A stretch of 32,000 nt of DNA. Origin: Candidatus Heimdallarchaeota archaeon B3_Heim (GTDB taxonomy: Archaea > Asgardarchaeota > Heimdallarchaeia > Hodarchaeales > Hodarchaeaceae). The stretch lies in assembly GCA_003144275.1 (NCBI GenBank), contig NJBF01000009.1, positions 7,653-39,652 on the forward strand. The letters are read 5' to 3'. The notes under the pieces were generated by a model. The model was given only the letters and a program-made list of their open reading frames with translations. It did no database searches and had not been told where the DNA came from. Numbering within the stretch: position 1 is the stretch's first letter; each line of letters opens with the position of its first letter. Shown here in pieces: positions 11,230 to 30,193 of the stretch. The translations under genes and the position numbers were made by a program.

Positions 11230-11588
11230 CATAATCATTTTTGTCCGACAAGGCAATATTTCTCGTATTCGCAGCCCTCTCTCTCACAATCTTAAAAGGC
11301 CTCCCTCCCTTACTTCTTCAACCCCGAGGTGATGACAAAAAAATATACATAATTCTTAGGTCATATTCCCTTGTAACTACGTTAGACGAGTTACCCGTCA
11401 AAGGCAAGAGAAGAATGGCCCAATCTGGTGGAAATTCTGAAGTGTTTGGGAAATCGCAAGAAGATCTGATTCAAGTAATCCCAATGGATAGCATACATTC
11501 TCTTGTTGCTAACCTGCCGGATAGCGGATGTGTGACTCATCCAGTCCAGAACTATTCTCTAAATAGTTGTCTGACAAATTTAGTCATG
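11230..11588 (+). mobile_element. 359-bp non-autonomous miniature relative (MITE-like, copy A) of the TnpB element at 27158-28568
   Basis: Left end 11230-11251 is 18/22 identical to 27158-27179. Right end 11567-11588 is 20/22 identical to 28547-28568. Internal 11370-11405 is 30/36 identical to tnpB 27904-27939, and 11516-11546 is 29/31 identical to 28488-28518. Confidence 0.85.
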
Positions 11589-21455: not shown

Positions 21456-21675
21456 CTCGTAACTGCGTTAGACGAGTTACCAGTCAAAAGCGAAGGGGGT
21501 AAAGCCAGTGGTTTTTGAAAATCGAGAAATCAAGCAAGAATGCCACTCCTATAGTAACAAGAAGTCCCTCGAAAACTAATTCTTCAGTCGAATTGGTTTT
21601 TTCCGGAATAGCAGACCCGTGACTCATCCTGTCCAGAACGAGGTTTTGTTGCTTTGTATGACAAATATAGTCATG
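21456..21675 (+). mobile_element. Second miniature TnpB-element relative (copy B); right end intact, left end not recognisable
   Basis: 21456-21491 is 32/36 identical to copy A and 28/36 to tnpB. It carries GTGACTCATCCTGTCCAGAAC at 21619, and its right end 21654-21675 is 19/22 identical to 28547-28568. Confidence 0.75.
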
Positions 21676-26863: not shown

Positions 26864-27157
26864 GCATAAGCCTCCGAATTTTTTCTCTATCTCTTTAATG
26901 TATATTTTGATTGAGGAATCGTGATTAATTCATATTAGAAATTCAATAGAAACGTTTTTTCAATCAAGTAACGAAAAAATGGTTCGATTCTTTTAAATCT
27001 GTGCAAATCATAGAAGTTCATTTTTAACTTCCCTCAATGAATTCGTAAAAAGAGAGGAATTACTAATTTAAATTAGCGGTTCAATGGGTTACATATTTAA
27101 AATTCGTTCTATTTAGAAGAGAGAGAGTTGACACTATTTTAAAATGTAATTTGAATA

Positions 27158-28568
27158 CATGATCAAATTTGTCGGACAAGTAAAAAAATTGAGGTTGAAA
27201 AAAGGCAAGTCATTTTCGTTTTCGGGGACCTCTCTCTGGTACAAGGTTAAATACAAGAAAAACAGTCCAATAAATGGGAATGCGAGCCAAAAAACAGACA
27301 CACCCACAACTGACAATAAGAATCCAAATGAAATCAAAGCCCATTTTTGTGGATTTGTGTACACGAGCCAAAAACTTGTATAATAGAGCTACCTACCAGG
27401 TGCGACAAGAATTTTTTGCCACAGGAAACTGGTTGCAGTATACAACTCTTTATCATCAACTAAAGCATGAACCAGTCTATTTGGCACTAAAAGAAATCTC
27501 TGATAGCTATCTCCCTCAACAAGTCCTCCGCCAGGTGGAACAAACCTGGAGAAGTTATTTTAATGCAATGAAAGTCTGGAAAAAAGAACCCAGTAAGTTT
27601 CTTGGTCAGCCTCGTCTTCCAGGCTATAAAGCAAAAAATGGCCTTCATGTGCTTAGCTTTCCACGACCCCGTGTCCGAATCCGAGGAACAGAGGTATTAT
27701 TTGCACGGAATTTAATGGCTCGTGGATTTCCCTCGTTTCCAGTGGGAAATCTCCCTGTTTCTAGAAAAACCTGTACGGGTGCTAGATTAGTGCCGTTTTA
27801 TGATCGATTTGTGGTTGAAATTCTGTATGAAACCGAAGTAAAGTCGTTATCCTCATTTAAAGAATCACCTAGAGCTATTGGTATAGATCTTGGGATTACT
27901 AACCTCGTAGCTACGTCAGACGGCTTACTCGTCAAAGGCGGGGTGGTAAAAACCGTCAATCAATGGTACAACAAGCAATTAGCCTATTTTAAATCACTCG
28001 CAAAAAAACACAATCAACAACATAATACACGTCGAATGCAACGGATGCATCGTGTCCGCGCAAATAAGATCAGTGATTATTTCCATCAAACCTCTCGAAC
28101 AATTATTAATCACTGTTTACAGAAAAATATTCACACCCTTGTTGTTGGCTATAATTCCTTTTGGAAACAGCATTGTAATTTGGGAAAACGAACAAACCAA
28201 TCATTCGTCCAAATACCCTTTTTTAAATTACTTCATATGCTTGAATATAAAGCTAAATTAGTGGGTATATCCGTTATTCGTGTCTCAGAAGCATATACTT
28301 CTCAACAGTGTAGTGATTGTGGTATAATTGATAAATGTAACCGAAGATCGCGAGGATTGTACCATTGTCGTTCCTGTGGCCTTCGTCTTAACGCCGATCA
28401 CAATGCCGCCATTAATATTCTTCAGCGTTCATCTCTTGATAAACAAGTAGTCCCTTCGGTCAGTTCAAGCTCTATTTGTTCTGATCAGCCGGATAGGGGA
28501 TGTGTGACTCATCCTGTCGTGACTCAAAAAGTTTAGTATTCTTTTTTTGTCCGACAAATCTAGTCATG
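27158..28568 (+). mobile_element. 1411-bp solo-TnpB insertion element (IS200/IS605 superfamily, IS1341-like organisation; no tnpA)
   Basis: A single tnpB ORF bounded by 23-bp imperfect inverted ends: 27157-27179 versus the reverse complement of 28547-28569, 20/23 identical. Boundaries are supported by where homology to copies A and B stops. Confidence 0.85.
27274..28536 (+). CDS. tnpB: TnpB RNA-guided endonuclease with rearranged RuvC-II site
   Basis: N-terminal OrfB HTH (KNLYN...), RuvC-I AIGIDLG, VVGYN..WKQ in place of the canonical E, alternative E in RVSEAYTS, CSDC/CRSC zinc finger and RuvC-III NADHNAAINI. Confidence 0.96.
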   Translation: MGMRAKKQTHPQLTIRIQMKSKPIFVDLCTRAKNLYNRATYQVRQEFFATGNWLQYTTLYHQLKHEPVYLALKEISDSYLPQQVLRQVEQTWRSYFNAMKVWKKEPSKFLGQPRLPGYKAKNGLHVLSFPRPRVRIRGTEVLFARNLMARGFPSFPVGNLPVSRKTCTGARLVPFYDRFVVEILYETEVKSLSSFKESPRAIGIDLGITNLVATSDGLLVKGGVVKTVNQWYNKQLAYFKSLAKKHNQQHNTRRMQRMHRVRANKISDYFHQTSRTIINHCLQKNIHTLVVGYNSFWKQHCNLGKRTNQSFVQIPFFKLLHMLEYKAKLVGISVIRVSEAYTSQQCSDCGIIDKCNRRSRGLYHCRSCGLRLNADHNAAINILQRSSLDKQVVPSVSSSSICSDQPDRGCVTHPVVTQKV

Positions 28569-28840
28569 TTCTAAACTACTGATATAAAATTTGTTGTGTG
28601 TAGTTATTTGAATCAGAAGAAAGTTGTATCGTTATTTACACTATATGAATAGTAAGAAAAAGTGATTTAACAAAAAATACGTGAACTTATTTAGAAAGAG
28701 ACACTTACAAAATTCAGAAGCATTAATAATATGGATTTTACCCCTTTTAGCTAGAAACTTATCGGTTTTCATTTCAATTAAATCAATTCTATAAGAAGAA
28801 TATTTAAGCCTTCACAGATCTAGAGAGGAGAAATACTAAT

Positions 28841-30193
28841 ATGTCGTTTGTTAACGAGCTTTTTGAACGTTTAAGTAAATCTAATACTGCTAACGATGTC
28901 CAAACTGCACTAGCATCTCTAAATGAAATACAGGATCTAATCGAACGGACTAAAGCTGCTCGAGAAACAGTCCAACTTATTCAATCGTATGGACAGGAAT
29001 TGGTTGGAAAGGGACAATTCAAAAATGCTGCCAACCAGTTTTATTCAGGCTCTCAAGTTGTTAAAAACTTTTTAAATGACCCAAATCTTGAAAATCAGTG
29101 TTTAATTTTGTCCGCACAGGCATTAGCGAATGCTTCTCAAGAGCATATTACATGGGATGATTTGATAGGGGGTGCAGCGTGTATGACAATATCTTCATTA
29201 TTAAGAATTATAACCGGAGATTGGAATGTTAATAGTCACCTTGACGATTTTATTAAAGCTAATGACTTTTCAAATAATCAAGCGGCAACCGCTTGCCTTT
29301 ACATTCCCTATAATCTGGTTACAGCGGTCAATAGGTCAAATCCTAACCCAGAATTGCTTCAACAGGCTTCAGACTTCACAGAACAATATTTGATGACTGC
29401 AAAACCCGCATCAATGTTTGTAGATGGAATAAAGAGAGCTCTTGACTTAACACGTCAAGTTTTAATGGATACAACGAAATTTCCCTCAATCAAAGCGAAA
29501 TTCAATTATAAAACTGATGTTATTTTCGGGGAGAAATTTACTTTCTCTGTTCAACTCGAAAATATTGGTGAAGGTATTGCCAATAATGTGATAGCTACAA
29601 TCAAAATTCCTTCCAACCTTACTATAGTGTCGGGCCAAAATCAGATTTCTAGTGACCAATTACAGCCTGGTACCCTTTCTGAAGGACAATTTACGCTTAT
29701 ATGTCCATCAGGGGAAGGAAATGAGGAGATCTCTATTGAAATACCTGTTTTCGCTGAATTTACTGATATTCTCGGTAATAAGAATTCTCTCTCCCTTGGA
29801 ATGGCAATATTTCCTATCAGATCCGAGAAAAAAGGTGATAAATTAACGAGTCAGCTAACTATCTTGAAAAAGAATCTTCGAGAGGCAGTTACCCCCTTTG
29901 AATCCACTGAGAATTTCGAGGTGAGACCAATAGTTCAGGGCATGATCTCTATCATTGATAATCTTGCCACATCTACAGAGAGTAGAATTTCGAAAGGCGA
30001 TTTTAAAACAGCAGAAGCGGAGTTAGAGCAACTAAACCAAATTCAAACATTTTTTGGGCCACTCACGAGATTTCTCTCCTCATATCAAGATCGTGGTTTG
30101 GAAATTGTCAAAAGTCTAAAAGAAATTCATGAGCAAAGTCAAGAGTTAGTAAAATCGATTGAACAAATAGAGAACCGACTCCAATCAAGTTAG
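28841..30193 (+). CDS. Hypothetical cytosolic protein: alpha-helical (TPR/SNAP-like) N-domain, Ig/CARDB-like beta-sandwich and C-terminal helical bundle
   Basis: No signal peptide. Helical repeats (GQFKNAANQFY...), then FTFSVQLENIGEGIANNV...IPSNLTIVSG, a typical CARDB/DUF11-like strand pattern. Confidence 0.7.
   Translation: MSFVNELFERLSKSNTANDVQTALASLNEIQDLIERTKAARETVQLIQSYGQELVGKGQFKNAANQFYSGSQVVKNFLNDPNLENQCLILSAQALANASQEHITWDDLIGGAACMTISSLLRIITGDWNVNSHLDDFIKANDFSNNQAATACLYIPYNLVTAVNRSNPNPELLQQASDFTEQYLMTAKPASMFVDGIKRALDLTRQVLMDTTKFPSIKAKFNYKTDVIFGEKFTFSVQLENIGEGIANNVIATIKIPSNLTIVSGQNQISSDQLQPGTLSEGQFTLICPSGEGNEEISIEIPVFAEFTDILGNKNSLSLGMAIFPIRSEKKGDKLTSQLTILKKNLREAVTPFESTENFEVRPIVQGMISIIDNLATSTESRISKGDFKTAEAELEQLNQIQTFFGPLTRFLSSYQDRGLEIVKSLKEIHEQSQELVKSIEQIENRLQSS

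Follow-up and report, generated by a model that had tools for sequence, protein, structure and literature searches.

A TnpB with a rearranged RuvC-II site on a CATG-targeting mobile element of a Hodarchaeales archaeon, with a candidate omega-RNA at its 3' end

The stretch of archaeal DNA that we analyzed (32,000 nucleotides; "the window") contains a gene that we read, with a probability of roughly 80%, as a prokaryotic TnpB of the RuvC-II-rearranged kind, which is carried by a 1.4-kb element that targets CATG and has its omega-RNA at its 3' end, and which is not a specific relative of the Fanzors. The gene probably encodes an active TnpB-type RNA-guided DNA endonuclease, and we infer that the protein cleaves DNA. 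The features on which this reading is based are collected in Table 1.

Table 1. Features of the tnpB element and related loci, in window coordinates.
Feature	Position	Strand	Basis or remark
Whole mobile element, 1411 bp, CATG to CATG	27158..28568	+	Homology borders of six full-length paralogues
Left end CATGATCAAATTTGTCGGACAA, contains mini-palindrome TTGTCnGACAA	27158..27179	+	Conserved in every full-length and miniature copy
tnpB CDS	27274-28536	+	420 aa, uninterrupted ORF
RuvC-I Asp205 (GIDLG, motif at 203)	27886..27888	+	D-hydrophobic-G type, not DPG
Internal nucleotide block inside the CDS, also in gene-less miniatures	27903..27947	+	Miniature positions 144-180 match full-length ~750-800
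Gly292 (LVVGYN at 289), canonical RuvC-II Glu position	28147..28149	+	AsCas12f alignment
Alternative catalytic Glu339, putative (RVSEAYTS at 336; SEAYTSQQC)	28288..28290	+	Conservation and spacing
C4 zinc finger C346, C349 (CSDCG), C365, C368 (CRSCG)	28309..28377	+	Motif positions
RuvC-III Asp375 (NADHN at 373)	28396..28398	+	Motif positions
Candidate omega-RNA scaffold	28444..28568	+	Overlaps last ~30 tnpB codons and right end
Right end TTGTCCGACAAATCTAGTCATG, roughly the left end inverted	28547..28568	+	Paralogue alignment, end motifs
Predicted guide-encoding flank TTCTAAACTACTGATATAAA	28569..28588	+	Analogy with TnpB systems
Miniature copy within the window	11230-11588		

The window protein matched curated TnpB family models above their cut-offs. 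NCBIfam NF040570 (guided_TnpB, 'RNA-guided endonuclease TnpB family'), whose cut-off is 100 bits, was matched at 211.4 bits (E 2.4e-62) over model positions 17-389 of 389, and the 420-aa protein matched Pfam OrfB_IS605 (PF01385) at 79 bits and Cas12f1-like_TNB (PF07282) at 82 bits. Its relatives are annotated as TnpB by NCBI, and its look-alikes in the Protein Atlas are generic TnpB clusters only. Three paralogues have GTG or GTA as their first codon, while the ATG of Met3 (27280) is conserved; the true start may be this Met3. An AlphaFold2 model built with 137 sequences reached a mean pLDDT of 89.5 and a pTM of 0.85, with disorder limited to residues 1-3 and 390-420, the latter at pLDDT < 50. 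The top fold matches of the model were AsCas12f, ISDra2 TnpB and ISFba1 TnpB, with mimivirus Fanzor2 (9B0L) in 16th place. ISDra2 TnpB (8EXA/8H1J) and AsCas12f (8J12), the best PDB matches by both structure and sequence, share the WED/REC/RuvC/zinc-finger layout of the window TnpB but have the canonical RuvC-II Glu.

In the active site that we propose, the catalytic triad would consist of D205, E339 and D375, with Gly292 occupying the old glutamate site and E339 assuming its role. The phmmer alignment to AsCas12f (8j12) placed 'tlvvgyn' of the query over 'tiqmedl', and because G292 thereby falls opposite the Glu of 'MED', we assign it to the canonical RuvC-II position; no Asp or Glu was found among residues 285-300. 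E339 lies 47 residues after G292, and six residues separate it from the first CxxC (E339-x6-C346). The alternative Glu of mimivirus Fanzor2, within 'NEYLTTKTCSNCG', has the identical spacing to its CxxC, and we take it to be the E467 whose mutation (E467A) in ApmFanzor2 demonstrated that the alternative Glu is required for cleavage (Jiang et al. 2023, PMC10530073). In the AlphaFold2 model, strand 288-292 ends at G292 and E339 comes after strand 333-337, which is the beta-5 placement reported for rearranged TnpBs (Altae-Tran et al., PMC10691335). The protein has the split RuvC triad Asp/Glu/Asp, with the Glu at the alternative position and RuvC-II separated from RuvC-III by a zinc finger, and its sequence satisfies the pattern D{P}G...ExxxxxxCxxC...CxxC...D given in PMC10711439.

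These residues are conserved far beyond the window. Among 137 full-length representatives of the 50%-identity clusters nearest to the window TnpB, G292 and D205 were present in every one, E339 in 136 and D375 in 135, and this near-invariance places the pattern of Gly plus alternative Glu far beyond chance. At position 206, 135 of the 137 have L, I, F, M or V and the other 2 have P. An alignment of the 35-member Asgard family shows little or no variation at D205, G292, E339 and D375, and L206 is conserved. The zinc finger is gone from ~127 of the 137 nearest representatives, yet it is retained across the Asgard family. A preliminary description of this DNA, made from its letters, had pointed to the change of the canonical Glu to Gly in LVVGYN, to a substitute Glu 47 residues downstream in RVSEAYTS, and to an open frame with the RuvC-I Asp, RuvC-III Asp and zinc finger intact; each of these observations is borne out by the data above.

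The same description had supposed an Asgard archaeal host, correctly. The host is a Hodarchaeales MAG in which the neighbors of tnpB are archaeal chromosomal genes, and the nearest proteins, at identities of up to 88%, carry the name Candidatus Hodarchaeales in their sources. Among species-representative genomes, the top matches, at 43-68% identity, were all from Heimdall/Hod or Promethearchaeota (Loki) MAGs, and the next tier, at 33-40% identity, comprised other Asgard archaea, Methanoperedens, Thermoplasmata, Clostridia, Ktedonobacteria and cyanobacteria. A 102-row ML tree placed the window TnpB within an Asgard-only clade (SH-aLRT 99) that contains both Heimdall-group and Loki-group members, and tnpB is therefore old within Asgard archaea. 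A recent transfer from bacteria, which the description had named as a finding that would count against its proposal, was considered and is ruled out by this clade.

The tnpB gene is the sole gene of a 1411-bp element, which lacks a transposase gene and is non-autonomous. The genome from which the window comes (94% complete; G000) contains six full-length tnpB paralogues (67-70% identity) together with several fragments, and TnpB is represented in it by two further families. Aligning the six copies gave sharp borders, the left starting with CATGATCAAATTTGTCnGACAA at 27158 and the right stopping with TTGTCnGACAAATnTAGTCATG at 28568, and pairs of left-end and right-end motifs are spaced 1411-1424 bp apart. 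Both ends carry the hairpin TTGTCnGACAA and terminate in CATG, so that the ends of the transposon are delimited and its target is short and fixed. There are also about 20 miniature derivatives, ~17 of them 359-367 bp long and one of 146 bp, plus three 33-bp 'solo' palindromes. The block of the coding sequence that is shared with the gene-less miniatures is also matched by other loci of the genome. Among sequencing runs, only small-share contig sets from marine sediment and cold seeps came up; four runs gave fragmentary contigs and internal-deletion joints resembling the miniatures, and the empty site of the window copy was not found among them.

Comparison with related genomes revealed both filled and empty sites. 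At the site syntenic to that of the window copy, nine congeneric genomes (G163 and G173 among the relatives) have the flanking genes adjacent and the tnpB element missing. G173 is the closest relative, its DNA being 95-96% identical to that of G000 over another contig, and it provides an empty counterpart to a miniature: where G000 reads ...GGAGC-CATG[mini]CATG-GCTTGAGG..., G173 reads ...GGAGC-CATG-GCTTGAGG..., with flanks that are 96% identical. A single CATG in G173, set against the two around the miniature in G000, means that the family inserts at CATG, and the difference between filled and empty means that it has moved since these genomes diverged. The window copy's own site showed no CATG in two relatives; the flanks there are only ~80% identical and include indels, and this site is consequently uninformative on the target. 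At a second miniature site, the relative has CATC.

Neither the element nor the genome yielded a cognate TnpA of the Y1 or the serine-recombinase type. Y1 TnpA was absent from both the element and G000, IS607 TnpA was not detected above cut-off in G000 or beside close homologues, and a search of the genome for a Cas1-type partner returned none. Within the 22 congeneric genomes, Y1 TnpA occurred in two, each time next to a TnpB of another family, and neither copy is intact (one has an internal stop, the other is partial) or carries the hairpin. At the Y1 TnpA loci of two Promethearchaeota genomes, no relative of the window TnpB lay within 1.5 kb. Because solo tnpB elements are common, the missing TnpA does not exclude the protein from the TnpBs. 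The family has thus been mobile recently in Hodarchaeales, yet a recognizable transposase was not found in 22 related genomes.

This mismatch between recent mobility and the lack of a matching Y1 or IS607 TnpA in the congeneric genomes would fit a different mode of movement, in which the element is moved, and the 4-bp CATG duplicated, by a double-strand transposase (a DDE-type cut-and-paste enzyme or some unknown kind) and not by a Y1 enzyme, with the role of TnpB unchanged. The ends also fit this possibility: they are more symmetrical than classical IS605 ends, being inverted-repeat-like with CATGA...TTGTCnGACAA on both sides; the empty site has one CATG where the filled site has two; and TnpBs that are linked to DDE transposases and have symmetrical ends are known (PMC10691335). 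However, no candidate for such a transposase was found, and a subterminal hairpin with a fixed tetranucleotide target is also compatible with Y1 'peel and paste'. Since CATG is palindromic, the Y1 and cut-and-paste models predict identical junctions. We regard movement by a double-strand transposase as a possibility of some substance that is nevertheless rather unlikely.

The last ~125 bases of the element most likely form the omega-RNA scaffold, as suggested by the conserved blocks, the covarying stem and the overlap with the disordered tail of the protein. Across 25 distinct copies, which come from several MAGs, the blocks AAGTAGTCCC and GCCGGATAGnGGATGTGTGACTCATCCTGTC are conserved. In stem A of this region, at least seven different sequences all preserve the pairing; stem B is weaker, being predicted in most copies and not in one of them (L004). 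The terminal stem of the window copy has diverged from that of its paralogues, and a copy from another MAG (L105) shares the variant. In full-length copies, these 125 bases encode the disordered protein tail (residues 390-420), as expected of an omega-RNA that overlaps its gene. An Rfam search of 27000-28900 gave no meaningful match, its sole hit being a sub-threshold snoRNA that we attribute to chance. In TnpB systems, the sequence immediately downstream of the right end serves as the guide (PMC10711439, PMC10530073). By analogy, we infer that the guide is read from 28569 onward; the 3' flanks differ at every copy of the element. CATG would be the TAM.

Together, these features suggest how the element might persist. 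A 1.4-kb non-autonomous element with an IS200/IS605-like layout would insert at CATG, its 3' ~125 bases would provide the omega-RNA scaffold, and the DNA past its right end would supply the guide. Because the element inserts at CATG, its excision would leave a CATG beside the guide-matching flank; TnpB would find this predicted TAM and cut there, and repair of the cut site from a filled copy would restore the element (homing).

The loss of the canonical Glu could instead represent inactivation, leaving a TnpB that is catalytically dead or domesticated and binds or regulates under RNA guidance. TnpBs that were inactivated and exapted have been described (PMC10691335), and the lack of an accompanying transposase gene would suit one. 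We consider this very unlikely. The compensating Glu is conserved in all but one of the 137 representatives together with both Asp residues, ApmFanzor2 and TvTnpB cleave DNA with the same arrangement (PMC10530073), and the gene resides not at a fixed host locus but in an element that has multiple copies, intact ends and polymorphic sites. The tnpB paralogues are under purifying selection, with dN/dS of 0.10-0.17, including pairs whose dS is unsaturated (0.24-0.43), and the catalytic-site residues are kept in all intact paralogues, the exception being DLS for DLG in L004. The open frame and the dN/dS values agree with the preliminary description of an intact, RuvC-II-rearranged TnpB, and indicate that it is selectively maintained.

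As judged by shared features, the window TnpB appears to belong to the class of nucleases variously termed RIIr-5 (PMC10691335), TnpB2 (PMC10530073) and E-alt with D-hydrophobic-G in RuvC-I (PMC10711439). It has in common with them the Gly site, a Glu six residues before the zinc finger, NADxN in RuvC-III, a length in the range of 380-430 aa and residence on mostly solo tnpB elements. The site with Gly or Pro plus an alternative Glu has been found in large prokaryotic clades, with RIIr-5 'the largest of these groups', and NADxN marks the major clade of 'derived TnpB' (PMC10691335). Proteins with E-alt and D-hydrophobic-G form a clade of their own (Yoon et al. 2023, PMC10711439). The TnpB2 class includes a biochemically active archaeal member, TvTnpB from Thermoplasma volcanium GSS1, an RNA-guided, TAM-dependent nuclease without collateral activity (PMC10530073). 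Compared by description only, TvTnpB is likewise archaeal and has an alternative Glu (E323), and it differs from the window TnpB in being partnered by an IS605 TnpA and in having NTGAC as its TAM, where the window element has no TnpA and a predicted TAM of CATG (PMC10530073). In contrast to most of its nearest bacterial relatives, which have lost the C4 zinc finger, the Asgard-only subclade retains it.

The preliminary description had called the protein a Fanzor-type rearranged TnpB. The rearranged RuvC-II stands; the designation as Fanzor-type is not supported, on the evidence of RuvC-I, RuvC-III, the missing IS607 TnpA and the tree. Nor can Gly plus an alternative Glu be used, as was proposed, to mark a relationship to Fanzors. 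This site was present in all 137 nearest representatives, and 661 clusters match the window TnpB at E<=1e-30; it is instead a hallmark of a very large prokaryotic clade. In Fanzors and their proposed cyanobacterial IS607 ancestors, E-alt is combined with DPG in RuvC-I as a 'molecular fingerprint', and linkage to IS607 TnpA is reported to be specific to Fanzors and pro-Fanzors (PMC10711439). The window TnpB reads GIDLG in place of DPG and has NADHN in RuvC-III, compared with (D/Y/G)RDxN in Fanzor2-like ORFs and in L113, an IS607-linked E-alt TnpB of Ktedonobacter with D-L-G in RuvC-I. DPG is not an absolute mark of Fanzors, because three giant-virus Fanzor2-like ORFs read DLG.

For direct comparison, Fanzor2-like ORFs were found by scanning viral contigs for the motif EYLTTKTC, and those recovered from giant-virus contigs (one of 1.26 Mb) have the Gly, E-alt and zinc finger. 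Mimivirus ApmFz2 (9B0L) and these ORFs share with the window TnpB the Gly, the spacing of the alternative Glu, the C4 zinc finger and the fold, the structural alignment of Fanzor2 with our model giving TM scores of 0.63/0.58 at 14% identity. Unlike the window TnpB, most of the Fanzor2-like ORFs are 490-630 aa long (two are shorter), and the context of Fanzor2 is IS607 or a eukaryotic virus, where that of the window TnpB is an archaeal chromosome. A hunt for pro-Fanzors beside the IS607 TnpA genes of four cyanobacteria and Ktedonobacter, and in 151 cyanobacterial genomes with the IS607-linked E-alt TnpB as query, found none; it yielded only canonical-Glu TnpBs and the one E-alt D-L-G protein, L113. 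When PDB matches were ranked, Fanzor2 was 11th (43 bits) for the window TnpB by sequence and 15th (60 bits, with AsCas12f at 92 bits) for the profile of the Asgard family, and it was not among the hits of a profile of the broader clade. For L113, by contrast, Fanzor2 was the second hit. No Fanzor1 structure was matched at E<=1.

An ML tree of 55 rows, in which the Fanzor and pro-Fanzor lineage is represented by Fanzor2-like ORFs alone, separated all E-alt proteins from the canonical-Glu TnpBs (support 99). The Fanzor2-like ORFs formed their own clade (100) on a long stem of 2.87. The Asgard family was nested, apart from them, in a 41-row prokaryotic clade (SH-aLRT 99) to which a Thermoplasmata relative also belongs, and metagenomic sequences that bear the zinc finger branch below the Asgard family. 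When the Asgard family was constrained to a single clade with the Fanzor2-like ORFs, the tree became worse by 22.9 log-likelihood units, which falls short of formal rejection in the AU test (p = 0.077), with long branches involved; the Asgard family as sister of the Fanzor2-like proteins is disfavored. This tree, of the kind that the preliminary description had suggested as a check, agrees with it in setting the window TnpB apart from canonical-Glu TnpBs, and goes against it in placing the protein apart from the Fanzor2-like clade.

Several observations could nevertheless be read as making the Asgard family the closest prokaryotic relative, or even the archaeal ancestor, of the Fanzors, inherited at eukaryogenesis: the host is one of the Hodarchaeales, the TnpB family is old within Asgard archaea, Gly and the alternative Glu are identically spaced, the C4 zinc finger is kept as in Fanzor2, some giant-virus Fanzor2-like ORFs have DLG and not DPG, and the AU test of the joint clade gave 0.077. 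We find this extremely improbable, given branches with support of 99 and 100 between the two groups, the worse constrained tree, the different RuvC-III motifs, a rank for Fanzor2 (9b0l) of 11th to 16th in the sequence, profile and fold comparisons, where Cas12f and ISDra2 TnpB came ahead of it, as against second for L113, the failure to match any Fanzor1 structure, the lack of an IS607 TnpA in the genome, and published trees that derive Fanzors from cyanobacterial IS607 TnpBs (PMC10711439). A narrower proposition would have the Asgard-wide TnpB clade with the retained zinc finger as sister to the Fanzor lineage, and it merits hardly any credence; if it were true, the eukaryotic nuclease with the relocated Glu would come from the archaeal host and not from cyanobacterial IS607 elements.

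We conclude that the window TnpB groups with prokaryotic TnpBs and is not a specific relative of the Fanzors. The relevance to Fanzor origins that was initially suggested is not supported, and, as the evidence stands, the protein has no bearing on how Fanzors emerged. It adds one Asgard member to a class of TnpBs that was cataloged and tested biochemically in 2023. Its practical value may be modest and would lie in its compact size of 420 aa, the predicted 4-base palindromic TAM CATG and the well-delimited candidate guide-RNA region, for which the many natural miniature guide-RNA elements offer comparison material.

Genomes sharing 95 to 96% identity are polymorphic for the tnpB element family, and we therefore conclude that this family has moved recently. 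Its ends resemble inverted repeats, and its target is the palindrome CATG. This recent movement contrasts with our searches of the B3_Heim genome and 21 congeneric genomes, which found no Y1, IS607, or Cas1 transposase able to serve the family. The miniature derivatives (359–367 bp) lack the gene and retain both ends, the 3′ RNA-like region (the candidate omega-RNA scaffold), and an internal hairpin block. Outside the window, derivatives of the element occupy about 20 further loci in the same genome and give more than 40 matches in G173, its closest relative. One derivative of 146 bp is also present, as are three 33-bp "solo" palindromes, each consisting of a single hairpin with CATG on either side.

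Features of the tnpB element, its derivatives, and related loci
Feature	Location	Remark
Gene-less miniature copy	window 11230-11588	
Right-end remnant	window 21654-21675	
Internal nucleotide block	window 27903-27947	inside the tnpB CDS, codons ~210-225
DNA encoding residues 390-420	window 28441-28536	C-terminal 30 residues
E-alt TnpB (L007), 412 aa	C8:90327-91442	same contig as the window's tnpB; 37% identity to it
H2TH (Fpg/Nei-type) ORF, 173 aa	L105 5267-5788	directly after the L105 element copy; N terminus apparently short

The internal block is retained in the noncoding miniatures as well, where it lies ∼180 to 215 nt from the right end versus ∼620 nt in full copies; an RNA, a promoter, or a transposase site are candidate roles. 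The C-terminal tail of the protein is disordered in the structure model, while its DNA is among the best-conserved parts of the element, which suggests that the constraint there falls on RNA rather than on protein.

A copy of the element in another Hodarchaeales MAG (L105) is 81% identical to the window's copy and may have inserted into or beside the H2TH gene. The B3_Heim genome holds two TnpB families besides that of the window: the alternative-Glu protein L007 and six similar copies of ∼426 aa (L013–L018), which group with canonical-Glu TnpBs in the tree.

Among the Fanzor2-like ORFs that we retrieved from giant-virus contigs, only a 377-aa group (L180) has VDPG in RuvC-I. Because three others with the Gly and the alternative Glu (L182, L198, and L203) have GIDLG or GGDLG instead, the published "DPG fingerprint" of Fanzors (PMC10711439) is not universal among the viral ones.

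Of the 137 closest cluster representatives (P0121–P0268), about 127 no longer have any of the four zinc-finger cysteines, commonly showing S/D ... S/T in their place, and keep the catalytic triad. The C4 finger is retained in the Asgard family and in a few deep-branching metagenomic sequences.
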